Assembly: GCA_973895155.1 (NCBI GenBank)
Contig: OZ316895.1
Location: forward strand, 16,658,170 to 16,722,169
Direction: 5' to 3'
DNA length: 64,000 nt
DNA from: Marsupella aquatica
Taxonomy: Eukaryota; Plantae; Marchantiophyta
This document shows, piece by piece, positions 19,188-57,800 of this stretch (positions are counted from its first letter, which is position 1; each line of letters starts with the position of its first letter). The notes under the pieces were generated by a model. That model searched no databases, was not told the origin of the DNA, and saw only the letters and a program-made list of their open reading frames with translations. A program made the translations under genes and the position numbers.

Positions 19188-23060
<3,873 letters not shown>

Positions 23061-26019: not shown

Positions 26020-27305
26020 AATGGTTCCATACACATCTCAGGTCCCATCCTCAGACTATCCTCCCACACTGCAAAATACCGTGGGCTCTGGGGCGTGGGC
26101 CACCGTACACTGCAAAATTACCGTGGACACTTGGCCTCACAAAACCGAACTCCGCCGCTTATCAGTGTTTGACAAAATTCAAAAGTTCGCAGACTGCTCA
26201 ACGGCTCTCTCCCCCCTCTCTCTCTGTCTCTCTCTCGTCCCGCTCTTCCCCACTTCGTCACGAAGTTACTCCCTAGGACCAGAGGCGCTCGATGCGATTG
26301 CCCCTTGACGATGATTGTTGCTTCATGCTGCGTTTCTCCGTCGGCAGAATGATGATGATGATGCTGTGCTTCTCCTTGGGCGGTGATTGATCCACTTTTC
26401 GCTTCTTATTCGGCCGTGATTGCTTCTTGCTGTGCTTCTCGTTCGGCAGCTTTCTCCTCTCCTCTCAGAGCTAAGCGCGGAGCTTTCGTTTGGAGGGGTT
26501 TCCACTGCCTCGGGGTGGCGCGGAGAGTGACAATGGAGAAGAACGGATCCAGGAGTTCGCCGTCTTCATCGACATCCGTCGGCTAGTCGGCTGGTTAAAG
26601 TACGAAATCTATCTTCGTCCTCGCTCGGGTGCATTCTACTTGGTAGACGACGTCCTGACCTGTTTTCGTGGTGGTTGTTGAGAGCATTAGATGGAAAGGA
26701 AGACAAACAGGGATCCGACGAGCATTAGGAGGTGCGTACTGCATGTGAAGTGCATGGTGGATCATATTAGTGGATGTAGGAGGGAGACAGGATGAGCTCC
26801 GAGGAAAGGGAGCTGGACAAACTGTCCGTACTGAGGAGAGATCATTATACTCGCGGTTTCCTTCTGCAGTGCTTTGTTGATGATCAGAGACGGCGATGAG
26901 GAGGATTTGGGTACGGAGAGGGTGGATCACTCACTTGCAGGGCTGAGAAGCTTGATGAGAGGCTCAAACTCTGTTGGAATTTGGCTTTACACGACAATAA
27001 CAAGCACATTCTGACTCTGAGTCGTTTCGCAGGTGATGGTCAAAACAGAGAGATATGAAATGTCCCAAAGTATACAGATCGCACCATTGGGTGGGCGGAT
27101 GAGCTGGGAAGGAATTGCCGTTGCACAGGTGCAGGAGAAATGAGAGTCCTGCAATGCTCATGATTTGCAGCCGGGACAAGATTCTCAGTCAGGTGTGGGA
27201 GGGCGTTGGAAAGGAGTCGAGGTTTCGGGGGTTCTGGTTTAGGCAATAACTCTGATTTGAACAGGCAGAGGAAGGGACGAGCTGACTGAAGCTGGAGTAG
27301 CCAAG

Positions 27306-30300
27306 ATGCCGAGACCAGGCAACCCTCCGGTTATTCGATGGAGGAAGGGGGAGATTATCGGTGCGGGAGCTTATGGTCGCGTTTATATGGGGATGAACGT
27401 TGATACAGGAGAACTACTGGCCATAAAACAGGTCCGTTCTTTATATGGTAAAACCGTACTCCGCGGGTTTCCCTATATTTGTGAAGTCTGTCGAACAGCC
27501 AACTGGGAAAGCAGGATCATGTTGCCGCACCCTGACGGTGTGGCCGTTTGTTTTAATCATTGAACCATATTATGTGAGTACCATTGCCCTAGTGAATTTG
27601 AGCTAAAGGTCTGATCTCTGGGTTTTGTCATACGCAGGTCCTTATTTCTGTCAACAATGTGACGAAGGAGAAGGCTCAAGTGAGTGGCCGTCATGGGACA
27701 ATTGCTTGCCTTCCTCCTCTACAGAAGCCGTGTTTATCGCTTGGGAATGAAATTTCGCTTTGCTTCAGTGCCTCTTCCACTTTTTACCCCCGCTTTTAAA
27801 AATTCATTTTGCTCGTCAAGTGAGCCACCAAGAGTTCTTACCCCGGTCGCGTGCAGGCTCACATAATGGAGTTGGAAGAGGAAGTGAGACTATTGCGCAA
27901 CCTATCCCATCCGAACATAGTCGTAAGTATATCCTCAAGCTTTGCTCGTTTGCATAGAAGAAAGCTGGAATTTTTGGCTTTAAGGCGGAAATTTGGAGGA
28001 AATATGGTTGCTGACCTGGAGTTCCGAATGCATGTATTCGCTGTTCAAGTTAGTCGTAATCAAAATATATTTTCCGGACGATCTTACAATACAATCTGGT
28101 CCGGCACAGCGCTATTTGGGGACCGCTCGAGAGGAAGAGGCCCTCAACATTCTTCTCGAATTTGTGCCTGGAGGATCAATTGCTTCACTTCTCGGGAAAT
28201 TCGGATCCTTCACTGAACCGGTATCAAACCATCATCAATCCGGGATCACTCCCAAAAAGCTTGCTCTGTAGCACTTCTCCGGTGCATCTCATATCTTGTG
28301 TTTTATGTATGGCCCAAGGTTGCTTGTGAAGTGGAGTCCCTGACATTACCATATCTCAAGCTGGAAAAATAATTTGCCTGAATGTCAGGTTTTCCTTTTG
28401 CTTCTGTGAAAGATTCTAGAGCTGCGCATGAAGTATAGATCCTTCGATCCTGAAGAAAGTACTTTCCGGTGTCCAATTTTCTAGAAAAGAAGAGAATGAG
28501 ACTTCGTACTAAGCCATTGTTAGAACAGGTCATACGTATGTACACGAAGCAGCTTCTACTGGGCTTGGAGTACCTGCATAGTAACAACATCTTGCACCGA
28601 GATATCAAGGTGAGATTCCAGCCTAAAGGTGGTGCAGCTTCTGTGCGGAGCCAACTCTACTGGCAGAGCTGTATATTCAATTGAAATTCTGTCATTTGTG
28701 TTGCCACTCTTCAATTCGGTACATTGCCTGTTTAGCGCTGGTACCCATTGCGCACCTTGCTTTGGACTCCTCTAAGGAGAAAATACAGCTGCACAAGCCT
28801 GTCGTTGCTTTTCTACAAATGAAACACTTAATCTCATTCAGTTCTTTCCGTCCCGCCAGGGTGCAAATATTCTTGTCGACAACAAAGGATGCATAAAACT
28901 TGCCGACTTTGGAGCATCAAAGAAAGTCGTTGAGCTGGTATGACTATTAAATATATCTTCGTAGAGGGAAATGTTTTCCAGGAGTGAGGTCCTAATATCA
29001 TGGAAACTAGCTATGGGGGTCATGGGAGGTCTATGGGAGGGAGAGAGTATGAGACATTTGTTGACAATGTTGAATCATGAACTTTAATGAACTTGCCTCC
29101 CAGCGTTTTTTAAAGAAACAACTAAGACTAAAAAATAACCATGTTATGTTATGAATGAAGTGCACCCAAAATATTGCATTTACATCTTTTCTACCGACTT
29201 CAGTGCTTTAGAGTTTGGAGTCGAGCTGGAAAACCCTTTGGAGCAATGATGTTGCTAATAACTTGTCTGTGCGATACAGGCAACGATATCTGAGGCTAAG
29301 TCAATGAAAGGGACTCCATATTGGATGGCCCCAGAAGTTATTCGACAAACGGGTCACAACTGGTAAGAATTTCTCGTGGTAGTTTCTCCGTCTTCAGCTT
29401 TCTATCGTCAGTTTGTCACGGCAGATGTTTAATTAATTCGCTCGTGGGTTACATCTTTGGGAATTTCCATTGCTTCTAATCTTTCGTGTGAGCGCCTACG
29501 GGATTTGATGAGAACATTTGATATCTTTGCCCGGTCAGGCAAGCAGACATTTGGAGCGTTGGGTGCACTGTTATTGAAATGGCGACAGGGAAACCACCAT
29601 GGAGTCAACAGTTCCAAGAGGTTGCTCCCATACCATACATAATCTCTTTGTCCACGTTGGCTCAGATTGAGCTGGGTGTTCACAGTGGGAGAATGTAGCC
29701 TCCTCCTGTGCAGTATTATTTGTCTAGCGCGAAGTAATGCAACCATGCACAGAAAAAGTGCTGTCTGTATTCGCTGCCGTGGAGTATATTTTTGTATGAA
29801 CTTCCGAGGCTCATTCTGCACTCTTTTAGCTCTAATGTGACGTCCCAGCCTCCCTTTTGTCGAGTTGTTTGTTTCACTGTGTTCGCACTGCCAAGTCTTC
29901 CGAAATTGGTCTGCAAGGGGAGTTCTCTTTTGGTAAAGATTGCTGACTTGAGCGCGGATTCAACAAGAATGCATGACCATACAAGGAAAGCGGGTTGCTT
30001 GCTTTTGCCTATAGTGAGGCGAAGATGCTATTCAATAAAGTGATGACTTCGTGTTTTACCTGATTTCGATGCGCTTGTCTCCTTAATATTGTATTTGTGT
30101 AGATTGCCTGGTGGACTGACTTCGGTTCTTGCCTGATCCCTTGTATTTATAGGTTGCAGCGTTATTCCATATAGGGACAACCAAATCTCACCCTCCAATT
30201 CCCGAGCATCTGTCACCGCAGGCCAAAGACTTCCTTTTGAAATGTCTGCAAAGGTGTGGCCATCATAGAGAGTTAACAGCGTCATCAGTTTACATGTTAT

Positions 30301-32843
30301 ACAAACCTTTGTGGTCTGAAAGTAGGTCGAGGATTACGGTCTGATTCATCTTAGTTTGAAATATTGTCCATATAAACCTAACATACAAATGGACATCTGG
30401 TATGTTCGTCAGGGAACCCAAGCTGCGACCCAGTGCAGCCGAGCTCTTGAAGGTACGAACTGATTCTTTTGTTGTCCTTCTCATACAATGACATCACCTT
30501 TGCTCAAGCTATTTTGATTTAGAATCAACTCACCAACACCGTGTGTCCCTTTGCACCACAGCACCCATTTGTGACTGAGCGCATCCCAGATGGACCTGAT
30601 GGCAACAGAACCGTACAGCAATCCTCCGCAGATCGAAACTCGGTAGGCATGTTACACATTTGCCAAGTCAGTCCTTTCTTTGAGTTTGAACATTCTGAGT
30701 TTATCCTAACAATTGCGTCGCTGGTAGGTACGAGGGAGTGATTTGGCTTCAACCGTCGGCAAGAGTAATTGCAACACCTTGTGAGTTGTCTTCCCTGTTG
30801 GACTTAGAAGCATGGGATCTTCCTCGTCTCAGCCTTGCATGATTTCTTTCGCGTATTTATCTTTTCTAGATGTTGCGTTTATAAAGATTCGTATCGTTAG
30901 GACATCTGCGACTTGGTAGACGAACTAAAAATAAGTTGTCATTTTACTTCTTGCAGGCGTAATCCGTCCTTCAAGGCTGGCCAATTCTCTTGGGCACGGA
31001 GGGGGCCATTGACCATGAACGGAAGTCCGAGCTTAAAGCCTTCGGGAGAACTTCAACCTCGAGATAATGGGCGACAAGACACGTCGTTCAGAGAGGACTC
31101 GAACTGCTCAGTTAGACTTGATTCGATTCGGAACGACAGCCTGGGCGGCCCAGTGGGACTTAATTCAGTTGTACATGATCATCAGAACTGTTCAGTTAGA
31201 CTTGATTCAGTTCGCAATGATTACGAGAACTGTTCAGTGAGACTTGATTCACCAAATTGTTCAGTGCGACTCGATTCTATTAGAAGTGACTATCCAAGAA
31301 CTTCATTGCGTTTCGATTCAGTGAGAAACGGTAACGCCAATTGTTCAGTTAGACTTGATTCTGTGAGAAGCGACTACCTGACGGGTGCCGGAATACCATC
31401 CTTGAGAGAGGTGCAAACGCCCCCCTTTTAAGTGCTCTGTAATGACTGGTTGGCATGTAGCTGGATAATCAGGACGTCATCTGCTGTTCCCATTCTTCAG
31501 TCTGCCCTACTAACTGAGACCCTTTTGTTAAACTGTTTCAAGCAGAGTTTTAATCCGATCTCTGAGCCGTCTTTCGAAAATGGAAACACTTGGGACGATG
31601 CCAGAAGGGGCCCGGACCTGACCCTCAGAGCGGGTGACAAAAGCAATACAGCTGGAGCTTTGGAGGACGAGAGAGGAGGCGAAAGCTTGCAAGACGATGA
31701 TGATGTCACAGAATCCAAAATAAGGGCCTTTTTGGATGAAAAGGTAGTGTACTTCAAAGATGATGTACTGTCACGCTTGCAAATGGGACGAATTAGATAG
31801 ATCGTGCCGTCGGCACTACTCACGTTTTCGCTTTCGGGTTAGTGGGTCTTCGCTTTTTGGGTTAGAGGGATTTAAGTGTCGGTTGAATGTTCGAAGACAG
31901 GGGTTAGCGTAAGGATAGTGGTAAGGGTTTAGGGTCGTCAATCAGGTGTGTAAGCTATCATAGTTTCTTGGGATTTGAATCTGAGCGTAGTACTCCTGAC
32001 CGTGCTGAATTTTACAGGCTCTGGAGCTAAAACGGTTACAAACCCCACTGTATGAGGAGCTTTATAATATTTGGAATACCGCAAACGAAAACGGGCCATC
32101 AGAAAGCTTTATTGCACCCTTGAGTCCTTCACCTGCCAAGCTTCAAGCAGCAATAAGCAGTCGATCACCAAGCAAAGCCAACAGTGTGAGTGGGCGCTCC
32201 GTGGGCATGCGGAGCAGTCGGGACAGTGAAATGAGCATAGGTTCTGGCAGCCCAGGTGGCGCTGGGTTTCCTAGTGGCAATTGCTCTCCTCTCCTTGAGA
32301 TCCCGTCACCAAAGCTGAATGAGTGGAAAGGACTCCTACATGATGCCCAAGCTCAACACATGCTCCCACCTCCAAGCCCCGGGTACGTCTATGCATCCCT
32401 TCCAAATCTTCCAAGGAGACACTGATGAACTAGACAATGCAAAGAATTTGTATGGTATGAATATGAACCGATGTCTAGCTCGACTAATTGTACGTTGCAT
32501 TGGGAATGTAGCCTGAATTCGGAACGCCAGAAATTGTGGAAAGAAGAACTGCAGCAAGAGCTCGAAATGAAGAGAGGTACAAGAGATTTCATTTGGATTT
32601 AGTCGATCATGGAAGTGTTTTCAATCTTTTTTTGAATCTGTTGTATTTGCCATATGTACATTAAAGATGTAGTCTGCAACTGACAGGTGTTCGTCTTGAA
32701 TGTGCTGTGTTTCAGAGGAAAAGAGGAAGCTCACACGAACCGCTAGCACTCTAATTAACACTACCCAATCGCCCAATAAAGACAAATCTCTGCAAAGATA
32801 TGGCAGCCGTCTTGTCAGCTCCACTCCTCCCACACCTAAGTAG
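27306..32843 (+). CDS. MAP kinase kinase kinase, NPK1/ANP-like, multi-exon
   Basis: Exons encode [87 protein letters not shown] and [17 protein letters not shown]. The regulatory tail has [35 protein letters not shown] and [20 protein letters not shown]; stop at 32841-32843. An additional upstream coding exon cannot be excluded. Confidence 0.95.
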
Positions 32844-33584
32844 CTTTTCATTTCACTCCTTCCACACCGAAGCAGCTGATGTTATTTATCATTTTGTGAT
32901 GGTGCTTGTACCTGAGCTACTGAGCGTCTCGGATATGATTATAGATAGACGCCTTACCAGTCTGACTCTTCTACTCAGTTTCCCCTGCGTCACTTGCTAC
33001 AGGCCAGTACTTTATACATCAGCCGTCCCATTGTTCCTTTTCGTTTCTCCTGAGTGGAAGGGGTACACGCTCATGAGAAGCTAAGTTAACACCTTAACAT
33101 TTATCCCATGGAATAATTACTGAATGTTGTGGTAAAGGACGTAAAAGAAGTCCCTTGTCTGCTGCGTGGTTTGTTGACTTCTTTCTTCGTTACACTTATG
33201 ACCTAGTTTGTGGTCCTTGTTGAAAGGCCATTGGCCAGTCGAACACATTTACCCGGAGTTGTGGAGACAGGACTGATTTGGTGTTTTGGGTTTAGTTTTG
33301 TTTTCTTAGTCTAATGGAATCCTCTTACTAATTTGAATAGAAAATCCCTAAACTACTCAATATTTCAATATTCAGGAATTGACCTGGAACCCCAATAGAC
33401 GACATTTCCTGAAATCTCATCTATATAAGAAATGCCAATGAAAACAAATGACTGTTTATGCACACTACAACATTGAATATTTGAAACTACCTTCATGAAG
33501 GCTGTATTAATTTGCAGTTGTTAGTTTGGTTGCTTAATTGGTTCCATCCTGCAAGGAAATGTGGGAGCAAATGGTGAACTTCTA

Positions 33585-34059
33585 CACTGATTACCGTAAT
33601 TAATCTCACACACAGTATTTGGGAACAAAGGTTTTTGAAAGCTGTCACTGTAGTTAATGTGTGTGAGACTATATAAGAAGTGAGACTAAATACATGTTAT
33701 TATAAATTAGAGTAAGTGAGATTATTTTTGGTGACACTCAAATAGTGTGTGATGAACACATTATGTATATAGCTTATGAAAAGTACAAATATTTCTAGTA
33801 GTAAGATATATTTGTGATGGCATATAAAATTAAAAATGAATGTCAATTGAAATTCAGATTTCATTAAAGTATGATGAAATGACAACCAGGTTATAAATAC
33901 AATCAAAATTAAATTAGAATGAATGACAATAGACTGAACTCTCTACTTGTACTAATATTTATATTTTTTCAGATTTGTAGTCACACCCTGATTAGTGTGT
34001 GTGATACTATTTATGCAGGGAGACTATATAAGTTATGATACTAATTACGGTAAACAGTG
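33585..34059. mobile_element. MITE with TA target duplication (Tc1/mariner-like ends)
   Basis: TA|CACTGATTACCGTAATTA ... TAATTACGGTAAACAGTG|TA is a 17/18 inverted match. The 475-bp interior is AT-rich and non-coding. Confidence 0.8.
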
Positions 34060-34339
34060 TAGATATTTGAGAAGAATGTGTAGTCTCAGTGGACTATTAC
34101 ATGACAGCTGTCATATATGGTGTTATTGTTGTATATCATATTGACATCTACAAGCCATATGAAATAGAGTACATCCTTATGTTAAATTTTCCACCATTGG
34201 AATAATTTCCCCACTTGAATATATTGCCATCAAGCTTTGCTTCTTGATCAAAAAAGAACTCAACCAGGGTTTCCTATTGTCTTTTGATACACTATTCTCA
34301 TTACAATAGAGAATTTGTTTTGTCAACCCGACACCTTTT

Positions 34340-34680
34340 GTTCTCACCTCTATTCATGTTCAAAGAATTCAAAGAATAGAACGGGTGGCACACCAGTAGT
34401 TGGGCTAGTGTAATTATCATGTTTATTTATGTGGCTCACCTGTTTTCATGTGCAATGAAGTTTAGAACGGGTAGCCCACCGGTAGTTGGGCTAGTGTAGT
34501 TATCAAGTCTATTTAGGAGGCTCACCTCTATTCATGTATTCATGTTGTTCAAAGAAGGGGTAGCCCACAGGAAGTTGGTCTAGTGTAGTTATCAAGTATT
34601 ATGTGGCTCTCACCCCTATTCATGTATTCATGTTCAAAGAAGGGGGGGTGGTTGGTCTAGTGTAGTTATCACATATTTAT
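34340..34680 (+). repeat. Four degenerate ~90-bp tandem units, each ending in ...ctagtgtaRttatca
   Basis: Units contain ctcacct..ttcatg...gggtagcccac...gttgg(g/t)ctagtgtagttatca near 34400, 34490, 34580 and 34660. Confidence 0.75.
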
Positions 34681-35375
34681 TTACATTCTGTCTAAGTGCA
34701 GGATCCGGGGATAACACCCCAAGCCTGCAGTTATCCACTTTATGCACTTCATCATAAGTGCATGTTGCACTTCTCCATATGTGTCTGTTACACTTTCCAA
34801 TAAGTGCCTATGAAATCACTAATGTACTTCCACAAATGTCTGGTCAGGTCATATACATAGACTTCTCATACCCAGAATATTCATAGTGCATGATTGAACT
34901 TAATAAGTGCACTTATCAATAAATGTTTCTAACATATGAGTTGCAGTCATTGATTAATGCATCTGTACTCTATCTGTACTCTTACAGACCTAAAATGCCC
35001 TTATGTATTTGTACTTTAGTGATGGACAACCTGCATTTTAAGAAGGGTGCATTTTTTGGTGCATTTACAAAAGAATTTGCTGTATTATTGAGGGATTACA
35101 CGACCACCCTGCAGTTACCCACAGAAGACCACCCTGCAACCCTGCAGTCACCCACGGAATGCACTTACACACGGTAGACTGTATGTGGCTAGTCTAGTTA
35201 TCACATGATGATGAGAATGTTGAAGTTGAGGAAACATCCGCTAAGGGCTGGCTAGATGGCTAGTCCCAACTTTGAATTGTCATCATGCATAAGTGAAGGG
35301 TTCATCGTTGATGAGTACAGTAGCTGCATTTCGGAACGCCACATTATGTTCCATTTGCATTATCTCTTCTTACTG

Positions 35376-36115
35376 TACTTTCTATGGACGAGCTCGTTCG
35401 GGAAGTTCGTCGCTAGCTCAGTATGAAGGAGATCTGCGAATGGGCTGCCTTAACAGTGCCTCGATCATTCTGTGCGACTACCCTACTTTCTATCGACGAG
35501 CTCGTAAGGGAAGTTCGTCGCTAGCTCAGTATGAACGAGATCTGCGAATGGGCTGCCTTAACACTGCCTCGATCATTCTGTGCGACTACCCGAGTAGGAC
35601 TATCCGCTGTGTATCGGGAGCACCGGAGCACCGGAGCAGCCATGAGCCTTGGGCCCCGGACGTGCAATCACTCCAGACTCAGCTGACCTCTTCCCAAGCT
35701 CGCAGCAACAGCGTGTTTGGAATCCCGTAACACACAAGAAGGTATTCAAAGCCAGTGCTGAACCGCACCACAAAGTCAGTGCTACACCACCTGCAACAAC
35801 CTCGACCCGAAGCACAAGTAGATACATCGTGCTCGTTCCGACTTCTCCCAAACGACTGTGTGGACTGTCATTGGTAGCAGCTAGCGACAGCATCATTTGC
35901 AACGACGACTCTCTTACGCCAGCGGACAGTCCTGCGAAGGGTAGTCTAGTCTCTCTACAGCTGTAGATGCAAGAGCTCTTCAGCATCATGCAGTCCTTAC
36001 TACTTTTCCTTACTACTTAATTGGACGCGACGGACAAACTTATCAACCTTCCCGACGAGCTCATAAGGGCAGTTCTTCACCTAAGTATTAAAGGGATCGT
36101 GCGAATGGGGCTGCC
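35376..36115 (+). pseudogene. F-box gene remnants, including a 2 x 108-bp tandem duplication
   Basis: 36021 onward reads LDATDKLINLPDELIRAVLHLSIKGIVRMG (F-box-like LPDEL motif). 35376-35483 and 35484-35591 are duplicated related fragments (DELVREVRR*LSM...LRMGCLN) with stops and frameshifts. Confidence 0.6.
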
Positions 36116-36272
36116 TTCACAGAATATAGAGTTCCGAAATGCAACAACTCATCTCTTCGTTATGAGTCGCTGCATTTCGGAACGCACATTCTGTTAAGAC
36201 AGTTAGTTCGTGGTGGCTCACGACAGCGGACAGTCCTACGAGGGTAGCCACGATACAGCTGCAGATGCAATA

Positions 36273-36787
36273 GAAGTATCTGTGGAGCAAGAGATGCAAT
36301 GTAGATTAATGGCTATGAAAGCTCCGCACTTCTGAGAGCGAGACGCAGCCATTCAGATTGCTATGAAGACTCAATTCTGAGCAAGAGGTGGAATGTACGT
36401 AGGTTGCTATATGTATTTTGCACGTCTGCAAAGGAGTGATTACAATTTGATTACAATTTGCAAGCGTTCGGTCGGATTCCACGAAAGCACACGTCATGGA
36501 GCTCAGTAGTGCCGAAGCCTGAATATTGAATAGAGATCGAATGTAGTACAATCGTAATGTTGAAAGAATGAGGAAATATAGCAGTGGGCTAGCTACATAA
36601 CCGATCGGCTTACTGAGCGGTACTGGGAGTTCAATTCGGCTCTAACGACCAACGGGAAGCTGGCCGGTAAGTAACGATTTGCTTGTCTGGCACCGTTCAG
36701 GGAAGCTCCTGAATGAATGTTACTTACGTACTTGCGTCTAGGATTTTCCACGTCTCTACTCTAGATTGTTGCACCATCGGCCGAGAA
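36273..36787 (+). repeat. ~510-bp dispersed direct repeat, copy A (degraded coding-like sequence)
   Basis: Aligns over its whole length with 39848-40353, e.g. gcaagcgttcggtcgga.tccacgaaagcacacg and tagctacataaccgatcggcttactgag. It abuts the MAPKKK pseudogene. Confidence 0.9.
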
Positions 36788-38880
36788 CAATCCTCCGCAG
36801 ATCGAAATTAACTCGGTAATCATGTTACTCATTCCAAGTCAGTCCTTGCTTTGAGTTTTGAACCTTCTGATCTTATGCTAATATTGCGTCAATGTGTACA
36901 GGTACGAGGGAGTGATTTGGCTTCAACTGTCCTCAAGAGTACTTGCAACACCTTGTGAGATGTCTTCCCTGTTGGACTTAGAAGCATGGGATCTTCCTCG
37001 TCTAAGCCTTCATGATTTCTTTCCCGTACATATCTTTTCTAGATTTTGCGTCTATAAAGATTCATATCTTTAGGACATCTGCGACTTGTTAAATATACTA
37101 GAAATTTATATGTCTGTCACGTACTTTTTGCAGGCGTAATCCGTCCTCCAAAGCTGGCTAATACTCTTGGGCAAGGACGGGGCCATTGATCATGACCATG
37201 AACTTACAGGATTCCGAGCACAATTAAAGCCTTCGGGACAACTTCAAAGCCGAGATAATGGGCGACAGGCAGCAACCACGTCGTTCAGAGAAGACTCGAA
37301 CGGCTCGCTTAGACTTGATTTCGATTCGTAACGACAGCCTGAGCGGCCCAGTGGGACTTGATTCAGTTGTACATGGCCATCAGAACTGTAAAGTTAGACA
37401 TATATTTCAGTTCGCAATGATTACGAGAACTGTTCAGTGAGACTTGATTCACCAAATGGTTCACTGCGACTCGATTCCATTAAAAGTCCGTGATTATTCG
37501 AGAAGTTCATTGCATTTCGATATATTCGGTGAGAAATGGTAACGCAATTGTTCAGTTAAACTTGATTCTGTGAGGAGCGACTACCTGATCGACGAGTGCC
37601 GGAATGCCATCCTTGAGAGAGGTGCAAACAATGCCACCCTTAAGTGCTGTGTAATGACTGGTTGGCATGTACGTAGCTGCATAATGAGACGTCATCTATT
37701 GTCCACATTATTTAAGTCGTGTCTACTTACTGCATGATCGAGACCCTTTTGTTAAACCGTTTCAAGCAGAGTTTTAATCCGATCTCTGAGCCGTCTTTCG
37801 AAAAGGGAAATACCTGGGACGATGCCAGAAGGGGCCTGAACCTGATCTTCAGAGCGGGTGACAAAAGCAATACAGCTGGAGCTTTGGAGGACGAGAGAGG
37901 AGGAGAAAGCTTTCTAGACGACGATGATGTCAGAGAGTCCAAATAAGGCCCTCTTGGATGAAAAGGTAGTGTACTGCAACGATGATGTATTGCCAGATTT
38001 TATAATGGGACGAATGAGATAGATCGTGCCATCAGCACTATTCTATCTGTTTGCGCTTTCTCAGGTTAGAGGGGTCTCATTTCAGTCCGAGGGATTTCAG
38101 TGTCGACTGACCGTTCCATGCGAGGGTTAGCGCGCGTGTGGAATGTGGTAAAGTAGGTAGATCGATGAGGTCTGAGGGTAGTTCTCCTGACCATGCTGAA
38201 CTGTTCAGTGGCCTCTAGAGTTAAAGCAGTTACAAACCCCACTGTATAAAGAGCTTTATAATACTAGACCGCAAACGAAAACGGGCCATCAGAAAGCTTT
38301 ATCGCACCCTTGAGTCACCTGCTAAACTTCAAGCAGCAATAGGCAGTCTTTCACCAACCAACAACAGCCATGCAAGAGTGTGAGTGGGCGCTGCGTGGGC
38401 ATGCGCGCGGAGCAGTCGGGACAGTGAAATGAGCATAGGTTCTGCAGCCCAGGTGGCCTTGGGTTAATTTCCTAGTGGCAATTGCTCCTTGAGATCCAGT
38501 CACCAAAGCTGAATGAGTGGAAAGGACTGTCGTCCATATGATGCTCAAGCGCAACACATGCTCCCACCTCCTGGCCCTGGGTACGTCTATCCATCCCTAT
38601 ATGATATCTTCCAAATCTCCCAAGGAGACACTGATCGATTAGACAACGCAAAGAGTTTCTATGCTACGATCATGGTTCCATAGCTAGCTCGACTAATTGC
38701 ACGTTGCATTGGGAATGTAGCTTCAACTCCGAACGCCAGAAATTGTGGAAAGAACTTCCGAGAGAGCTTGAAATGAAGAGATCGCGAGGTGCAAGAGATT
38801 TCATTTGTATTTTGTCGGTCATCGATCTTGAAAGTTTACATGCAAGTGTTTGCAATCGATCTTTGTTTCAATTGGGTATC
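36788..38880 (+). pseudogene. Unprocessed partial duplicate of the 3' (regulatory) half of the NPK1-like MAPKKK
   Basis: Colinear with about 30620-32650, including introns (caatcctccgcagatcgaaa..., [11 protein letters not shown]..., cgccagaaattgtggaaagaa). It has many frameshifts and no kinase domain. Confidence 0.95.
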
Positions 38881-39847
38881 GTGACATGACATCGATCAGG
38901 TGAGTGTGAAATCGATCCCAATCTTCATTGTCCATCTAAAATAGTACACAATAGTTCATGATCCATTAGAACTTAAACAGCAGAACAATAGGACAAGAGT
39001 GAACGATGAATCACTTTCAACTATTCACTTCTTGAACATTACATCATGATCATCATTGATCAACTACGTACATAGGATTTGTGATTACTTGTGCACATCT
39101 GCAACTGTTCAGAATTTTAGATTTAAATTTCCATTGCATTTTAGCCACACACCATTACAAGACTGGTGAACACTAAACATTGTCGGCATCAACTGTGGTG
39201 CGCAATGAAGGTTATCCTAGTGTCTGAACTTATTTACAAAGATTTGATCGACTAGGAGAATGTATTGCCATGGCTGGAAACAATTGATTTTTCTAGTCAA
39301 GTTTTTGTAAATCAAGTTCACCTGACATAACTGCCAAAAGATGTGAGCACGCTCGTTGCGTGTTAACTTTGCGTCTCAACTTTTCGTTTGTCAAAACATC
39401 TCTAGAGTCTCATACATCAGCAAATGGTCTTCAAGCTCTTATGAATTATCTCAGCGCGATTTTAAGAGATGCCGACCGTCGAAACATGTAATGGAGCTAG
39501 TGTTGTACAAAACCAAGCAGTCGTGAAGCTTTTAAGCCAGCATAGAACAAAGAGCTTTGGAACATATTAGCTAGACCAAAAATCTAGTCTTACTGGTGCA
39601 TGATAACCACATTACACTAGAGTTTTGCAGATATCAACCAGCTAGGGCTGAGGTGTGTCTTACTTATTCTACTTACTAATCATAATTAGAAGGGGACAAA
39701 CAATATGTAGTTGAGCTCGCAACGAACATAATGATCATCCAGCACTCTTCGAGTTTAGTGTGGTACTAGGCCAGACAGCTACATTAGTCAGTCCCGCCAG
39801 TGTATATGAAGTATTTAAACTTTCAAGTTTCTTGTAAGACAAATCAG

Positions 39848-40353
39848 GAAGTACCTGTTGAGCAAGAGATCATGCAATGTAGATTGGTATGAAGATTCCG
39901 CGCGCACTTCTGAGCAAGAGATGCAGCGATGCAGATTCCTACGAAGACTACACTTCTGAGCAGGAGATGGAACGTAGGTTGCTATGAAGATTTTGCACGT
40001 CTGAAAAGGAATGATTACAATTTGCCAATGCAAGCGTTCGGTCGGACTCCACGAAAGCACACGGCATGGAGCTCAGTAGTGCCCAAACCTGAAAATTGAA
40101 CAGAGGTCGAATAGAGTGCAAAACACAAAACTGAAAGAATGACCGAATATAGCAGTGGGATAGCTACATAACCGATCGGCTTACTGAGAGGTACTGGGAG
40201 TTCAGTTCGGCTCCACCGATCAACGGGAAGCTGGTCGGTCAGTAACGATTTACGTCTCGGGCACCGTTCAAGGGAAGCTCCCGAATGAACGTTACTGACT
40301 TGCCTCTAAGATCTTCCATGTCTCGACTAGATTGCTGCAACATCGGCCTAGAA
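39848..40353 (+). repeat. ~510-bp dispersed direct repeat, copy B
   Basis: Homologous to 36273-36787. Confidence 0.9.
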
Positions 40354-43300
40354 TATGAAGGAGTCGTGTCTTAATTGTACCGTCCAGTCACGAGCATATT
40401 AACCATTTTTAGTGGTCGAACGAAAACTACTACCAGCGAATGCACTCTGAAAGTGCGATTCAAACTGCATCCAAGTGTTGAAAATCAACAATGTGTTCTC
40501 ACTTCAAATCTATATTTCGCCCGACGCAAATCAGAGAGCACCTACCTTAATTACTAGCCCCCTCTGGAGTCTGAGCCCCCTGCACACGGTACGCTTGCCA
40601 ATCTTGTTTTTCCAAATATCCATGGAGGCCTCAAAATCTCTCCAAATCAACAGACTGACCGTAAGAATACCGTCAACTTTGCAGGAGATCGTCCATGCAG
40701 GAGACACCACAAGTCCAGGCGCCTTTCAAATTGATCGAAACGTAGAGGTAAAATACTTCGGAAGTCTAATTCTAACCCCGATTCTAACTGCTTCTCATAG
40801 ACTCACCACTTTAAGATCTTCGTTTGCCTTCCAAGTCGTCTTTAGTTTGCTCTTTGAATTTGCATCAGATTGCTAAGCTCAACATATGTGTTATCCTCTA
40901 CGTGGAGAAATCAACCCCCCTTATGCCAATCTTCTACAGGCCCAATAGGTTGAATCCCACAAGAAATTGTTACTAACACTAACTTTGTATATATATATTC
41001 AGCATACTACACTAAATGTGAATGATTCATTTATGAAAATCAGCTTAAACTATTTGTGGTAGGAAGAGATTGATCCCAAAAATGTTCCACGTCGTACTAA
41101 ACCATGAATATGGTCAAGTTTAAGTCACACCATTTTGAATATGGAAAGTGTTACTGAAAGCAGGAATTGTGGACAATAAATAACATGGACAAAGAATGCA
41201 TTACATCAAGCCAGCCCAAGTCAGCCACTACATTCACAAATTTTTTTACTATAATAAAATATTTAGTTGTCACAGGAATCATTGATTTTAGTATTATGGT
41301 AGTATGTTCCATACTTAGTGTTATTTGAGCTACTTAATGTCAACAATACTGCTTGAAAATTTTCTTATATCTATAAAGATCACTCCTTCAAGAGGCAATA
41401 CGTGTCTCCACCTATCAATTATTTATATTGAGAATAATTCCCCAAAGACAAAGAAGCCAGGATGTGTGCCATATATTGACAGATACCTTGGAGGGACAAT
41501 GCAACCCAGATGGACTGTGTTCAAACATTTCTTTGAACTTAAATAGTATCTTTCCTTTGTAAAACTAGTCAAACTTTTGGGACTAAAGTTGCTAGGCTCA
41601 TCTGAGTTCAGATTATACACATTGTGGTCCATCCAAGGATTCATTTCTGCACATCCTAATCTACTTCAAAATAACTCACAACAGAACAGATCTACACAAC
41701 CAACAGTCACTGACTTTCATTCCTCCCGGCATTCCTCTAACATGTAAAATATTGCAAAGGACAAAAGGGCTTATACCAGAGACATGATCCAAAGGGCAAG
41801 AAACCCAATAAAGGGGGCAAAACCACAGGAAAATTGGGAAAGAGCCCAAAAGCCCAAGGAAGAATCCCTAACAACAGCCAAAGAACTAGCAATAAGAGCC
41901 TTTCTAAAACCTGGTAATGTTTTGGAATAAACAGCATAAGAGGATCACAAAGAAAATTTTGACCAGAAACCCTAAAACCAATCACCTGGGCCCCATTGAA
42001 GGATAAGGAAAGCCCAACACCCCCTCTAGCGAGGGCAAGCAGTATGGAGTGATAAAGTAAGTCGTCACTTGGGAATCTCCCCAAAACAAAAAATTCCAGG
42101 AAAGAATGGAGATTCTTCGGACCAGGAATCATAAAGTGAGTTACAAGTGGACAGTAGTACTACTCTAGTGGTCTGTTTCCCAAGTAGGTCAGGATAGGAT
42201 TCCTCCTGAGGTGGGGCCCTATTTAGTGTCCATGATGATAACCATTTTTTTTATTGGACACGGGGTGGCCAGAATATCGCACTCATTGGGCCTAGGGAGT
42301 TCCAGGATGGATTCTGGGTCTTGTCTAATGGACCACCAGGCCAACTTGTAACTATGACTGTAGATCTCAAAGATAATTAACTAATGTGTTAAATGTTTCC
42401 TTTACCCATCTTCAACCACAGATTGTCCCAAAGTGTAGGTGTGGGAAAGGGCTGCTGTGTGTTCTCATGGACGTAGCGCTGACTAAGGTGAACTCCTATC
42501 TCTTGGTGTCAATGTGTGTATGCTTGCTGATTGTTTTCGTGGTTGTTTCGTGATGGTTTTCCCAATAGGATGTTATATCTGGTTAGTATAATCAAATTTA
42601 ACCCAACCCAGATACAATTTGATGGTTAGCCTGACAACTAAATTAAAACTGAAGGTAAATTAGTAATTTCTACCATTCTTTGTGATAGAATCGTGGAATA
42701 AAACCGTATTGATATATCTCAACCATGATGTGTTAAGACCTTTTTAGAGCCAATTCTCTCAAAATGAAGGACCACCGATTGGAACTGCAGAAGCAGGTTC
42801 TTGTCCTGTTCGCAGCGCTAAATAATGAGATGTGCACTTTTATTATTAGTAGACCCAACAGCCCAAGAAGATCCGCCCCTACAGATCGCGGCACATTGTC
42901 CTAGCCAATCGTAATCCAGCCCTTCAGCCACAATTGGCGTTTGGTTGTCGGGACTGCCAAACTGGCTGTCATCTCACAATAACTCTCACAATGACTCTCC
43001 TATCTTCACGGGCTCCTCCTTTCCGTTCAAGCCGGCAGCTGCTATGCCAAACCGACGACAACTGTGACCGTCTGTCATCTCAGCACAAGTGAGAAATGGA
43101 GTTAAGGAGGTAATACGGTAGTAGTAATTAGGGCGTCTCAGACCTATGAACACGCAAGTTAAGGGTAGTTGTTAACCCCGCAGGTAACGACTATCCCGTA
43201 ACTCAAATGGTATGCCCACAACGTGCTCGTTAACTTTTGGCCGCGGGAATAGTCCATTGCCCGTGGCCGTTTACGTGAATAGTAGAGTGTGGCCACGCCA

Positions 43301-43521
43301 ACCTTATCCCGACACCGATTTGAACCATACCTCGCGACAGTCCACCATACCTCGCGACAGTCGGCAGGAGGAGAGGAGAGCAGACCGTTTACGTGTCGGA
43401 GCGCGAGCACAATTTGGAAGGGAGCAGCGCGAACACCATTTGGACAGTCGGCAGTTGGCAGGAGGCGCGCTAGCACAATTTGGGGTTTATGGTTGAAATT
43501 GAAGGTCGACATTGCTGCTGA

Positions 43522-44722
43522 ATGACGTCGAGGTAAAGCAGTCATTTCTTCGTACGTGAAGTCTTCTTGACCTCATCGCAAATAGGATTGTGAAGGTGGG
43601 CAGTGCACATACGATTTACAGCACGATTGTCCATAGTGAGCATCGTGGAGCACGGATTGTCCATTGCAGCTGGTCGTCGACGTTGGTGCAGAGTCGCACC
43701 TGGGAGTCGTTGCTGCGTAGCAGAGTTGCTTCTGGCCTCGGCGTTGGACAAGCTGAAGTAGTGGGGCCTGCACAAAGTCTTTTCGACCTGGTAGCAATGA
43801 ATGTACGAATAGTGTGGAGGTGGAGTTTGCAAGTCAGCTTTGGATCTCGGAATCGGATCCGGAAGCAAGATCAGCCTCTGCAATTGTGATTTGATATTCA
43901 CTGCTACCGTGACAAAAATTGAGTGAGTAGTCTTTCATCATCCCACTACAATTCTATTTACACAATTTTTGAAATGAGAATGAGGCAACAATTTCATGTA
44001 TGTTTTCGTACATTTGCAGGGCAGAGGATCCATTTTGTCAGGATGGTGCCATACACATCGTTAGCTGAAGTCGAAGATTGTAGGGTGAATGGACATTCAA
44101 TTGTTCAAGGCCCTGCATTAGCTTACGTAGGCAACTTCGTTGCTGCAAATCCTTACCCTCGTAAATTTTTGTACATGTCCTGCCTAGCACTGATGCCAAC
44201 AGGACGACTGTGTGGGAAGTCATTAGAGTTTGGTCAGAATTGCGAGCATTCATCCTTGCCTGGAAAACCTAAATTCAGATTTCAGCTGGTTTTCTTTGAT
44301 GCTGTTTACGGAGGGGTTCCCCCTATCTGTGCTAAAATATGGGATGCAGGAGGTGTCTTCTTCGATTGCTCTCCATCTGAGTTTTTGAGTTGTTCAGAAT
44401 CTGAGCAGCTTGCCTATTAACTCAAGTATCACATGTGGTTGAGGTTCTCTTCAGAATCGTTGATCATGAAATCCATGTGAAGAGGATTACCTTTGTGGAT
44501 GCCACACCCAGAGTGCCCAAGCCACTCCCTCTGCATTTAGCTAGGAGTCAAAGACCAAGTGAACATGTTCAACATGCTGGCCAATGTAGTCCTGGCGAAA
44601 GTAGTTTCAGGCCCTCAGCTGAAAATGTCAACCCAAAACAGAGGCCAAATTTTTCTGGAAAAGCCATGGCTAAACTTATTAGAAGGCTGCAGGATGAGCT
44701 CAATCTAGATGAAGAAAGCTGA
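43522..44722 (+). CDS. Putative third spliced gene inside the transposon, unknown product
   Basis: ATGACGTCGAG|gtaaag (43522-43532) splices in phase to tttacag|C ACG ATT GTC (43622). Further open frames lie at 44020-44420 and about 44409-44722, ending ...MAKLIRRLQDELNLDEES*. The middle junctions are not cleanly resolved. Confidence 0.35.
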
Positions 44723-44887
44723 TTTATTCTTTTACCGGTCCTATCCTGAAAGAATAGCATGTATGCTCCATTGCTAAATATAATCACTTGTTGGTGTACG
44801 TCTTGTTCGACTCAATTTGATTTCTTGTATACTTGCATTGTTCAGTTTCCTCACTGCATCATGTTTATTGCAAATCTAGGGTTCACC

Positions 44888-46405
44888 ATGCCACGTGTTT
44901 CAGACAGACAGAGGGTGTTGAGCGAAGTGAAGGAGGAACTCTACCTGTCCATTCTGATGGAAAGCTCAAGTATTGATAGTGTTGAGTCCATTAGCAACTC
45001 AACCTCTTCAACAATGGACCTCTGTAGCGATGCACAGCTTATTGTCAGTCAATCAGACCTCGAATATGAATCTGATAGTGATAGTGGGGTTGGAGGTGAC
45101 CCATTTGATTGTGTGCCAAAGCCTGCTGAAATCATGGAATTGTATTTTGTCATGGACAATACTCGGTATTTTGTGGATAAGCCTATGACTGCTAAGTCCA
45201 GGGACTTTGCTGAGAATTTTTTTGAAAATCTCCCACATAAGTTGTTCAGGCAAATGACACGCATGGACAAAGATTCTTTCTTTACACTAGTGAGTATGAT
45301 TGAATCACACCAGGTCTTTATGAATGATTCTCCTTACGAGCAGGCTCCAGTTTGCTTGCAGTTGGCAGTCACCTTGGACAGGCTTGGCCATGATGGCAAT
45401 GGGGCTTGCTTGAATCATATGATTCCCACTTGGGGTGTTAGTAATGGCTCGTTGTGCAATTTCATTGCACGATGCTTCACGGCTTTGGAGGATGCTTTGG
45501 TTGTACATTTGCAGTGGCCAGATGAAGCAGAACGAGCACGAATATCAGATGAGTTTGCACACAAAGGATTTCCCGGGTGTGTTGGCCTCATCGATGGCAC
45601 ACTTATTCCACTCTCTCAACGCCCAAAGGATTCGGGAGAATGTTATTTCGACACAAAGAGCAGATACTCAATCAATGCTCAAGTTATTTGTGATGATAAA
45701 CACAAGATCTTGTACCTGTATACTGGTATGTACACTGCCTATCTTTTGCAATCTGGTTTGTATTTACATGAGCAAAGTGACAATTGCATATTAATACGTA
45801 CCCAAAATCTGTCTCTTGATTGATGTAGTGGTTGCTGGTGATCAGGAATGCCTGGTTCAGTGTCTGATCTCACTTTCTTGAAAAGAAGCAAGCTATGGAG
45901 AAGATGCAGTGAGAATGAACAGAACTTGTTTCAGCAGGGGCAATACTTGTTGGGCGATTATGGGTATCAAGCATCCGAGTATTTTGTTGCTGCCTTTAAG
46001 AAATATGACACATCTGTGGATAAGGAGGATTTCAATTACTGTGTGGCAAAAGCTAGAGTTACAAACGAGCATTGCATAGGTGTTTTAAAGTCTCGTTGGT
46101 TTTCTCTCAAAGAAATCAGAATTCAATTGAAAACCACCAAGGAACACTTGTGGATGGTGAGGTGGATAGGCATTTGTGCACGGTTGCACAACTATGTGCT
46201 TAGCAGGAATGATATATGGAGTGAGGAGGATGAAGTGATTATACTTGAAGGGTCTGAGGTTGCTGAAGAAGAAGGGCCTCAACAACAGACCTTCAATCGC
46301 AGACGTCCAGCCCCTAATCCAAGTGCTCGACTTCAGGCTGTCATGGCAACTGCCTTGGCATTTCATAGACAGCCAAGGGGTTGTCTGTGGTCTGGTGCTG
46401 CATAG
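44888..46405 (+). CDS. Harbinger-type DDE transposase (HARBI1/DDE_Tnp_4-like), 2 exons, ~465 aa
   Basis: Exons 44888-45725 and 45846-46405 join in frame (YT G|GA MPGSVSD). Motifs: FRQMTRMDKDSF, QLAVTLDRLG (HTH region), GFPGCVGLIDGTLIP, YSINAQVICD, YLLGDYGY, FNYCVAKARVTNEHCIGVLKSRW, CARLHNY. Confidence 0.93.
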
Positions 46406-46823
46406 GATTTCAGTTTGACTTACCATGTACACTTGTGTTCAACATTTGAACACGTTATAATAAAGTGTTGGTTTTCTATATAAAAAGTTCATGGAATTCT
46501 CTCTTGTCATCATTGATGTAGCATCTTATGTTTGAAAACGAGTCATGAGGATATCTGTCCGAAAGCAAATGAGGTAAGTTGATTCAGACGGTAAGAGACT
46601 AGAATTACAGAATATAGATCGGAGCAAATCATTGAGTTTCATAACAAATGAAGTCAATTTCCTTCAATTATACATTTTAGGCAGATGTATGTTTGCACAA
46701 AGCTACGGTTACAAGTGGCACAACAAACCTTTGAATGTTGCTACAAAAGTTCTAAACGTCACCAATCCCTAAAAGTAAACATCTGCACACCTAAGCACTC
46801 ATCTCCCGCTGCATGCGAGTACA

Positions 46824-48200
46824 CTAATCTTCAACAAGAGCCATGAGAGCTTTAATCTGTTCATCAGTTTTGTTACTTCTGCATAACTCAATCAACATCT
46901 GAGACCTTCTCTCTGCTCTAGACATCTGCCATTGGTGGTAGCGATCTTGGCAGGCCTTTTTCTCAGCATTAGCAGCACTTGCATTCTCCAACTGCAATTG
47001 ATGCTTCCGCATTAACCTATCTCGCTTTGCTGCTTCTTGAGACGAAGAAATTCGAGCTTGCTTCTTTTCGTCAAGCTCAACCATCTTCCACTTCTCCCGA
47101 GTTTGGAGGAGCTCCTTTTTGTAGTCAGCCTTCTGCAACAGCCTCTCAGCATAAATTTGTGCAACATTGGGCTTCGGAGGTGTAGGCTGCTTATCGTCAC
47201 CTGTCTTTGCACGTGTCTTCTTAGGTGGCTGGTTCTCCTTGTTAGCCATTCCTGCACCTGCTTGCCTGGGAGTGGGTCGATTTCCCACAGGTGTGACAGG
47301 TGGTGTTGTTGTGTGTGCTGGAATTCTCCCAAAAGAACCACTAAAATTGTCCCTGGATGGAGCATCGGGAGAATTTTGCCCATTCATAGGGGCCTGTGGA
47401 TTGTGAGCTCTTGAGGGAAAATTCGTCGCTGAATCATGGGCAAGGTGTTCTGTGGAAATGCCAATGAGGTCGTCCTCCCAGAATTCAGGTGAATTGAATT
47501 CTACTCCATCCTCGACACCTGCCGGTCCTTCTACATTGAATAAAACATAACTATGTGTGAGCAATATAATTATGATTGAATCAGGCTATTTCAATCGAAA
47601 AAAACACCATAGTAATTGCGAAACTACCATAGACATCGTACCAGTGAGGATGATTGCGGGCGAGTGAGGAACAGCTGCAGCATCTGGCGGGTTAGATCCA
47701 TCTTCATGTGGATCAAAACTTGTGAATTCGTCCTCGTCTATCCCAAAATCTCCAGTACCTCGAGGTGCTACATTAGGCCGGCTTCCGAACAGAGCATGCA
47801 TCCTCTCGAAATGAGGACACATCCTCTCTAGCTTGTCCTCCAGAGTCAGGCCAGACACAAAATCATCCTCTGTTAGTCCACCCCCACTCGACATTTTCAA
47901 TTCACGAGCCTCTTTGTACTTGGCAACATACCTTGCAAATCTTTTGCTGAGATTAGGCCCGCTGATGTTCCTTGGGAAGTTATGTGCCTGCAAGACAACA
48001 AGCATTTGTTTGAAAACGGTAGCCCTGCTCATGGGACGGCCCTGGATTTTTGTCTTTCCGCCACCATGGATGAGGTTGAAGTTATCTGGATTCTCCAGCC
48101 AATCAACGATCAATCCGTAGTCAGAGTACTTCAGCCTGAATTTCTCCCCACCTCCAGCGCCACTCATGCCAGCACCGCTTGCAACATTCCTCGGAGCCAT
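46824..48200 (-). CDS. Transposon ORF2, Myb/SANT-like DNA-binding partner protein, 2 exons, ~421 aa
   Basis: Exons 48200-47642 and 47530-46824 join in frame at GT-AG sites. The N-terminal domain (LIVDWLENPDNFNLIHGGG...YVAKYKEARELKMSSGGGLT...LERMCPHFERMHALFGSRPNV) and the basic coiled-coil C-terminus fit PHIS second ORFs. Confidence 0.8.
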
Positions 48201-49375
48201 GTCTGTGTGGAGAAGTTTGCTAGTGACAGCAACTCTGGGGAGTTCAGAATCGACGTTGGTTGTCGCTGCACTGAGAGAAGTAGAACTGATTTTGGGGAGA
48301 TTAGTAGCAACTTCACTTGTCCATACACAGGGAGCGAAAGAATCAAGATTGGCTACCGACTGTCCTTTGAATTCACACTTCACCGTTTTTGGCAGAATGA
48401 GCAATGGGATGCCAATCTGCACAATCCTCTTATCAGTTCATCGCGCACCTGAGCCTCCTCTCCATGTTTGAATTTTGTGGGCGCCATGTTCAGGACCTCG
48501 TGATTCGATAAGTGGCATAAACGACACAACAATTATGCCCAGAATACGAATTCAAACGCCGACAATCTCTCGCGATCGAGCTATCGTGGACACTTTCCTG
48601 CCTTGCCATCGCGGACGTTTTGGAGCATGAGCGCCAGCTTTGAGTAGGCCGCTTCCCGCAACAGGTGCCTCATGGGACGGATCAAACCCCGGCTCCCCTC
48701 TCTGGTCCAAACCCGTTTAATGTGGCCGTAACTGGAGTTAAGGCCATATGTGGTTTCCCGAAACTTTTGGGACGGCCGCAGGTCTGAGATGCCCTATTAG
48801 GCTATTATTGGTGCAACAACAACAACCAAAACAAAATGGCGTCCAATGCAAAAATGCGACATTCCAAAACTAATACGAACAGTAGGCTGGAAAAATATGA
48901 GCATCATTTTGAGAAATGGAGAACAAATTAACTTTTAGACACTAAAGTCTGAAAACTTTATGTGATGTGAAATGCTGTTGAAATCGGCCTTGAACACATG
49001 TTTTGGATAGGTGTTGGAGAAATACCCAAAATAGTAGTTGGCTGGGAAAACTTTTAATGGCCACAGCCAACAGTATGGGAGCAAGTTTAAATAATTTCCC
49101 ATGTTCAAGGATTGAGAACCAAGTTACCACTATGTTAGGGGTTGGCCCACCTTTTCCTGGGATGTGCTACTCTTGAATGTTTGACCTCAGAAACAATGTT
49201 CACAAAAGAGGGGTGGGCTGGGCACAGCTTTGAAGTGTGGGATTTGAGGCAGCGCAAGTGAGGTGTAGTTGGGCCATGGCCAGTGACCAAAGCTATGACA
49301 CAACTCACAGTCCAGTCTGGCCTCATTGGCCTGGCTCAATGCAGAGATTGAAGGGCAAAGTCTGGAAAGCCTCTT

Positions 49376-49611
49376 CGCCTTGACCTCCCAATTGGCTAAG
49401 GGATTTGCTTAGAACCGAGAGGGGTCAGGTTCAATTCCCCCTGGTGTGTGTGGGTGGGATGGGTTTTGTGGGTAGTGGATTGGAGTTCTGATTATCTGCT
49501 CGGCCCTTGGTTGCCCACTTTGTGTCCCTAATATAATACTCTCTCCTTCCTGGTGCGGTTCCCTGTCGGATCCGTTGGGGCTCACCCTAGTTTGGGTTCC
49601 CTACAGAAAAA
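49376..49611 (+). mobile_element. tRNA-derived SINE-like repeat (copy 2)
   Basis: caattggctaaggga...cttagaaccgagaggggtcaGGTTCAATTCCcc (box B-like). The body (ctctctccttcctggt...ccctgtcggatcc) matches the reverse complement of 24853-25098 and ends in an A-run. Confidence 0.65.
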
Positions 49612-57110: not shown

Positions 57111-57800
57111 AAAACAAGAGCAAAGAATTCAGGTAAGAATTCTGATCAGAGGGAAGAACATTCAGGTATATATCCTATAATCTTCGTACCACAATCACGT
57201 GAGAAAGATCAAAAGAGGGACCACCCCTCCACGTATGCTGGTAAGGCTGAGAGAAACGTTTTGAGATAGACTGTCTGAGCTATTTGAGAATCCAATTTCT
57301 GATGAAGAACTCGAAGTTAAATATATATGGGAATTGGATCAAGATGGGGGACCACAATAGATTCATCTGGGAAGAGGAAACTGTGTTCGGGTTGTTGCTG
57401 CCGTGCTGACCTTCAAGTCTTTCATCAAACTACACTTAAGCCAACAGGTAGACGATCCTTCAAGGGCGATTCAAATGATAAACCATTCTGCAAAGAAACA
57501 AAATGCCTATCAACCGGGAATGGTCTGCACGGTATGTCAACTAAAGGCCAAGATCCCCTGATTGAAAGGTAACACTAAAAGCTCAAACTAAAAGATCATT
57601 ATCTAACTATGGCTACTCCCATTGACAAATGAGTGATACTTGGAAAGTACATGAGACAGTGTCCTGCTGAAGATCGATGCTGACGAGACAAACAGCAACT
57701 TAGATCTCTCCTGTCTAATGGTGCATTTTCATTTACAACTTTCTCATCATCATCCACATTGAGTCACTCATTTCGAGGTTTTGTCGCCATACAGTAGACC

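Follow-up and report, generated by a model that had tools for sequence, protein, structure and literature searches.

Hairpins at the DNA ends that flank an excised element are established for hAT, Transib and MULE transposons and for RAG (PMC5499845). They have been described on the donor side for hAT (PMC2803484), and flank hairpins leave palindromic footprints of the P-nucleotide type (PMC5873905). Artemis opens hairpins mainly at position +2 and often also at +1 (PMC2175297), and elements that duplicate 2 or 3 bp of their target occur in the CACTA-Mirage-Chapaev-Transib (CMCT) group of transposons, for example Plavaka and EnSpm (PMC12730594).

In a 64,000-nt stretch of the genome of the leafy liverwort Marsupella aquatica (the window), a broken copy of a protein kinase gene carries short palindromic insertions in which a word X has become X.rc(X).X, where rc(X) is the reverse complement of X. 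There are 12 exact gains of this form in the copy, with an X of 2 nt in 11 and of 3 nt in one. In all 12, a single X of the parent corresponds to two X in the copy, and what has been inserted is the flank next to it in reverse-complement form.

A broken kinase gene copy and its insertions

The parent is a many-exon gene for an NPK1/ANP-type MAP kinase kinase kinase on the + strand (27264..32843), located by tblastn matches to queries from Calypogeia fissa (P0121/P0122), Marchantia (ANP1, P0123) and Riccia (P0124), and its reading frames are open across the duplicated part. The copy, a 3' fragment derived from about 30619-32650 of the parent, lies on the same strand at 36788..~38880, as placed by alignment and tblastn. 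It has kept its introns and contains frameshifts and stops, bearing out an earlier interpretation made from the letters of the window (the sequence-only reading), which had called it a pseudogene. Copy and parent differ by substitution in 9.0% of exon columns and 15.4% of intron columns, and exon CpG decay in the copy amounts to 8/56 versus 2/66 for GpC (P=0.04). The DNA of the window is nuclear and of plant origin. The leafy liverwort Calypogeia fissa is the source of the closest named proteins, with a 92% match for one exon of the parent gene and an 85% match for the RBR E3 ligase that is encoded by a single long ORF at 4941-6737; the window also contains a Myb/SANT-domain (trihelix-like) gene (11698-13488), class I tRNA synthetase exons (20191-20752) and a DUF688 ORF (57860-61047).

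Over 30550-39100, sequencing runs X3 and X4 contain two haplotypes, and run X5 contains the divergent haplotype only, at a depth of about 5 or less. The divergent haplotype (runs X3-X5) also has copy-like sequence, with 32 differences over 37771-38162, and the duplication therefore likely predates the haplotype split. A 6-nt gap at 37268 was not counted among the gains of the copy because contigs of runs X4 and X5 have six extra letters at the parent's site (31076). The Calypogeia protein is also longer at this site, matching the copy, and it is likely from these comparisons that the parent lost 6 nt whose counterpart survives in the copy, in the second haplotype and in the protein of Calypogeia.

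Seven of the exact gains are in exons and five in introns. Among the exon cases, AA became AA.TT.AA at an exon end (36806..36811, present in a zero-difference contig of run X1), and TGA became TGA.TCA.TGA, the sole example of a 3-nt X (37187..37195, X1 contig), where the insertion is absent from both the parent and the orthologue. AT became ATATAT (37520..37525, X2 contig) and TT became TT.AA.TT (38464..38469, X1 contig), while the alignment places GA to GA.TC.GA at 37587..37592, CA to CA.TG.CA at 38369..38374 and GC to GCGCGC at 38403..38408. The intron cases comprise GT to GT.AC.GT (37669..37674, from the alignment), an overlapping pair within an 8-nt gap that was split by hand (TG to TG.CA.TG and GA to GA.TC.GA, 37731..37741), GC to GCGCGC (38130..38135, X3 and X4 contigs) and TC to TC.GA.TC (38856..38861, X1 and X3 contigs). 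Slippage could also account for ATATAT and for both GCGCGC sites. The X words are varied (AA, TT, AT, GA, TC, GT, TG, CA, GC and TGA). In the exons the parent's open frame and the orthologue set the polarity, placing the insertions in the copy as had been claimed, and in the introns polarity was read from the shape of the insertion.

The sequence-only reading had listed 12 insertions, 11 of them exact, and all were recovered at the positions it gave. Its remaining case (38782), in which GA became GATCGCGA at 38780..38787 according to the alignment, is a palindromic gain of 6 nt and an inexact triplication, as had been implied. The list was nevertheless incomplete, since it missed the exact CA.TG.CA at 38369-38374 that brings the exact total to 12. 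Three candidates with one mismatch within 37103..37491 (AATTTA at 37103, ACTTAC at 37202 and GTCCGT at 37486) were left out of all counts, about 25% of random insertions yielding one mismatch. Gains in the copy that do not fit include 4-nt gains at 37220, 38362 and 38529, which were scored as misses, and inserts of 11 and 19 nt. A filler-like 12-nt inverted match links the insert at 38820-38842 to 39816-39827, 1 kb downstream.

Global alignment of parent 30619-32613 with copy 36788-38825 (223 substitutions in 1924 columns) gave 30 copy-side and 18 parent-side gaps. The copy-side gaps are of 1 nt (six), 2 nt (three), 3 nt (three), 4 nt (13) and 6 nt (two), with lengths of 8, 10 and 11 nt occurring once each. 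Exact X.rc(X).X accounts for 8 of the 13 four-nt gaps on the copy side and for none of the three on the parent side. The null for an exact fit is 1.3% for random letters and 3.1% in its most conservative version, and the probability of at least 8 of 13 is about 7e-10, confirming by formal comparison with chance an excess that had been proposed from alignment by eye. A second gap setting made 7 of 10 four-nt gains exact, plus the 6-nt TGA.TCA.TGA case. When the compound 8-nt and 10-nt gaps were split by hand and the tail site was added, 11 of 17 four-nt gains fitted, and 8 of 14 did so without the three dinucleotide-repeat cases (ATATAT and GCGCGC twice; P=2e-9). Tandem duplication of the adjacent 4-mer was found in none of the 13 copy-side 4-nt gains, and control forms among these 13 numbered zero for the reversed word, two for the complement (homodinucleotide X, for which the string is the same) and three for the repeat. 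These counts uphold the earlier claims that slippage cannot explain most of the insertions and that a few, here 3 of the 12, are ambiguous.

Logan contigs with zero differences span at least six of the 12 sites (36806, 37187, 37520, 38130, 38464 and 38856), and among the matches listed 38130 and 38856 are also covered by contigs of a second study. The first study is a possible source of the assembly, its contigs being nonetheless derived from reads. Agreement letter for letter with read-derived contigs at these sites speaks against assembly artefact, which the sequence-only reading had raised as a concern. We conclude that the insertions are real and non-random and that a stereotyped break-repair process is required.

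Concentration in a CpG-rich block

Motif counts along the window show that the scars are concentrated in a CpG-rich, low-copy, non-coding block at 35300..40400. With self-complementary X excluded, the block contains 40 six-letter motifs versus 18.7 expected (P=1e-5), and there is no excess in the flanking high-copy repeats (8 versus 7.4 expected) or in a Harbinger-type element (10 versus 15.7 expected). The observed/expected ratio of CpG is 0.81-0.98 within the block and 0.88 for the block itself, versus 0.18 in the flanking high-copy repeats. The earlier proposal that the process acts on silenced DNA is not supported by this distribution, with the caveat for labelling the block "unmethylated" that the copy shows a moderate rise in CpG decay. 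Outside 35300-40400, the window contains 161 motifs versus 141 expected (1.14-fold, P=0.056), which within this window does not bear out the suggestion of a dominant lineage-wide process. Since the motif excess is confined to the block, the process is demonstrated there alone, and heavily silenced DNA gives no sign of it.

Pfam gave no match among the block ORFs scanned, and Rfam gave none over 33000-43200. A repeat unit, R (36273..36787, +), abuts the copy and has a twin, R' (39848..40353, +), that is 82% identical to it. The comparison of this pair, made without an outgroup, has four 4-nt gaps, of which three are exact and one has a mismatch: relative to the twin, R has GT.AC.GT (36395), AC.GT.AC (36726) and the one-mismatch TTAATG (36306), and relative to R, the twin has CG.CG.CG (39899). 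Within the block there is also a CA.TG.CA at 35985..35990 for which at least three contigs of run X3 are without four letters, CA remaining.

Several further observations were made along the window. A hairpin at 36131-36183, with 22-nt arms that are 91% complementary and a 9-nt loop, is related to 35310-35349 and is without an Rfam match. A 14-bp inverted repeat (13/14 matching, starting GGGC and with AA outside both ends) roughly brackets the block (35245-41217); this pair could mark a cargo-carrying element or could be a chance pair. The region 48800-64000 has a weak motif excess (49 versus 36.9 expected, P=0.03 uncorrected), and runs such as GATCGAT, TCGATCGAT and CTAGCTAG, at 61750-61760, 63228-63236 and 53311-53319, are possible scars of the same sort in non-coding DNA near genes.

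Candidate mechanisms

Any mechanism has to account for the spacerless palindrome, the whole second X and the fixed length of 2. A break with flush flank hairpins and X on both ends explains all three features, because the tails rc(X) and X pair. Target duplication is the known way to put X on both ends and amounts to 2 bp in Mirage, and RAG nicks flush with its border. In our judgement the scars were probably, if only by a modest measure, left by the excision of a transposon that duplicates 2 bp (rarely 3 bp) of its target and leaves through flush flank hairpins. Such an element, which we infer along with each enzymatic step, would insert at X to give X-element-X, and the transposase would then cut it out and close both flanks into hairpins that end exactly at the element border, as RAG does. 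A host nuclease would open each hairpin 1-2 nt beyond the tip, so that the left end would gain rc(X) and the right end would gain X on the lower strand, and annealing of these complementary tails followed by fill-in would yield X.rc(X).X. Hairpin opening in plants is assumed here, by analogy, to follow an Artemis-like +1/+2 rule. Repeated visits over millions of years would accumulate in unconstrained, little-methylated DNA, and in a working gene the insertion step would be purged before the excision step. The sharp length of X suggests a fixed enzyme stagger, and the variety of X words fits an element that does not select its target by sequence.

A toy end-joining model, which serves only as a check of logic and consistency, produced X.rc(X).X from a 2-bp duplication and flush hairpins in 100% (+1/+2 openings), 74% (+2/+2) and 49% (+1/+1) of trials. 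The share fell to 0% when the duplication was absent or 8 bp long and when the hairpin tip lay one base into the flank. With +3 openings the form appeared in 4-25% only, which counts against the footprint interpretation. Intron events number five in the copy versus zero in the parent (one-sided P=0.03, from five events whose polarity is read from shape). This asymmetry suits a two-step route in which the first step is a large insertion that is harmful in a working gene, although a chromatin difference could be an alternative cause. Also against excision is its need for about six visits per kb with none retained (0/12, giving a retained share below 22% at 95%).

None of the joints and loose ends listed for runs X1-X5 showed an X-element-X filled site, and the window yielded no element with a variable 2-bp duplication. 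A scan of terminal repeats with short duplications returned about 95 pairs, mostly chance-like and with no clear candidate among them. Pfam scans of 28 and 149 ORFs of the window detected no CACTA-type transposase domain; the scope was 149 of the 179 intergenic ORFs of at least 62 aa, with 10 more included in the 28-ORF scan and 20 left out. The sole transposase domain among the window ORFs scanned was DDE_Tnp_4 (Harbinger-type), on the + strand at 44870-46405, within a Harbinger/PHIS-type transposon with long open frames (43130-48795) that has further long ORFs on the - strand (46824-48437), 16-bp end repeats (15/16 match), an ATT duplication and relatives in Calypogeia and Riccia.

Ends of the forms CAC..GTG, TGT..ACA and CATCA..TGATG were sought and one element was found (33585-34059). 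It is high-copy and CpG-poor, runs from CACTG to CAGTG between flanking TA, and may be EnSpm-like with a duplication of 2 bp. TA is not among the X words, which speaks against it as the source of the scars; a single metagenome match to its end motif, without further similarity to the window, was taken as chance. Another high-copy element (34689-35181) is truncated at its left end. The start of its family, obtained from listed loose ends, is CAGTCTACCG preceded by TA and matches the right end in inverted orientation, like a Tc1/mariner MITE. Harbinger-type elements excise precisely (PMC4561436), and Sleeping Beauty, of the Tc1/mariner type, leaves TA-flanked footprints on excision (PMC2874221). 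The events recorded here have a variable X that is in no case TA, which sets them apart from PIF/Harbinger and Tc1/mariner excision. Neither the neighbouring Harbinger-type element nor the TA-flanked elements were accepted as the source, since they duplicate different target lengths or words and are known to leave different excision products.

Two mechanisms had been offered by the sequence-only reading, hairpin opening and very short-range template switching, and the first is now favoured over the second: the spacerless palindrome, the 2-nt X in 11 of 12 cases and the lack of any excess of microhomology for priming (matches at 5 of 32 flank bases versus 8 expected) fit hairpin opening better. 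Under template switching, a polymerase in replication or repair would copy X, then rc(X) from the opposite strand and then X again ("4 before 1"), a forward-reverse-forward four-point path that X.rc(X).X fits by construction. Switches of this type occur in apes, although their median length there is 12 nt, by a method blind to 2-nt events, and the lengths here are sharply 2 nt (PMC7954356). No element is needed, which explains the absence of retained inserts, and templated repair in the block is suggested by the 19-nt insert near 38820, in which 12 nt reproduce, in inverted orientation, a sequence lying 1 kb off (chance probability about 0.004). Nevertheless, microhomology at the switch points was limited to 1/16 and 4/16, with none on both sides, and a one-step gain of 4 nt should also reach the parent introns, where no event was found versus five in the copy. 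Nor is there a match in scale to the small inverted triplications of FEN1 mutants, which are about 150 bp long with a 30-bp spacer (PMC13334657). We consider template switching unlikely, if still a contender to be reckoned with. Fold-back priming requires a loop, and the palindrome here is spacerless.

A geometry identical to that of the excision model would arise without any element if a host or abortive nuclease made a 2-nt staggered break, fill-in duplicated X, and hairpin-capped ends were then opened and joined. The candidates are SPO11/topoisomerase VI, which makes a 2-nt stagger, and a transposase failing at strand transfer. This route dispenses with retained elements and would favour open, little-methylated DNA, as seen in the block; however, if ends were simply filled in, direct duplications of 2 nt should be numerous, and only three copy-side gaps are of this length. 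It also leaves the lack of parent-intron events unexplained, and we know of no report of such nucleases hairpin-capping filled-in ends; we regard this route as quite improbable. Ordinary slippage, chance, or assembly or polishing error would suit the three dinucleotide repeats among the exact cases, but these explanations are already largely refuted by the excess that persists without those repeats, by the lack of duplicated 4-mers and by the read-derived contigs from two studies, and we give them almost no weight. The remaining probability is assigned to unforeseen causes.

Meaning and comparison with known systems

If the scars are excision footprints, a neutral sequence of about 2 kb was visited at least 12 times with only 4-nt scars left behind, at about 5 for every 100 substitutions. 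A tally of the elements still present would in that case fall far short of past transposition, whose activity could be traced from indels alone, and there would be a sequence-level handle on how elements that duplicate 2-3 bp cut DNA. The idea, going back to maize work in the 1980s, that transposon footprints are the source of much small-scale plant diversity would become directly testable. Each 4-nt scar brings a frame shift and a new palindromic motif. If no element is involved, the repair route is one that we did not find described. More speculatively, and as a possibility that we ourselves hold to be doubtful, leafy liverworts may have an undescribed process that makes X to X.rc(X).X, with X fixed at 2 nt, the commonest insertion in unconstrained, little-methylated DNA, either as a dense fossil record of hit-and-run transposition, with many more scars than elements still present, or as a transposon-free, hairpin-capping repair. 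Were this true, the stagger of the enzyme could be read off from the length of the word in any genome.

With the footprints of Ac/Ds (hAT), the scars share short, flank-templated palindromic insertions at an empty donor site, attributed to hairpin opening and end joining (PMC5873905). In Ac/Ds the palindrome has the complement of the element-adjacent base at its centre and is accompanied by 8-bp duplications and by deletions (PMC5873905), whereas the scars of the copy have no central base, a 2-nt X, both X whole and one dominant outcome. Assignment to hAT was rejected, since X is 2-3 nt and the offset-tip geometry gives 0% in the toy model. V(D)J P nucleotides, which involve RAG-Transib hairpins and Artemis, share spacerless palindromic additions of about 2 nt (PMC2175297, PMC5499845), and opening at +2 by Artemis predicts the size seen in the copy (PMC2175297). 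V(D)J ends, however, have no common duplicated X and hence give no triplication, and the reaction is programmed and somatic whereas the scars are inherited and scattered.

The target duplications of CMCT elements (CACTA/EnSpm, Plavaka) equal the lengths of X found here, at 2-3 bp (PMC12730594), and CACTA elements leave small rearrangements on excision (PMC3193017). The scars may be CACTA/Plavaka footprints, for which the length matches and the element was not found in the window, although the plant CACTA element described in these sources duplicates 3 bp (PMC12730594, PMC3193017) and the mode of X here is 2 nt. The literature searched yielded no description of flank hairpins or footprint sequences for CACTA-type or Plavaka elements, and no footprint sequences came from PMC12312487. 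Short-range template switches (PMC7954356, PMC5453318) allow the same outcome to be written as "4 before 1", but the known switches are longer (median 12 nt) and varied (PMC7954356), whereas the scars have a uniform length of 2 nt and form the commonest class of insertion. The small inverted triplications of FEN1-deficient cells share the direct/inverted/direct architecture, with units of about 148/160/148 bp, a 30-bp spacer and 6-bp junctions versus 2/2/2 nt without a spacer here (PMC13334657); this assignment was rejected because the units in the copy are 2-3 nt and spacerless. A 2-2-2 triplication as the main class of insertion was not found described, in a search that stopped short of most subscription papers and of the older maize and snapdragon footprint literature. 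Hairpin footprints are already known, then, and their complete 2-2-2 form at such density did not turn up in that search. With the responsible element unseen, the scars are best filed by their behaviour, which is that of hairpin or P-nucleotide footprints.
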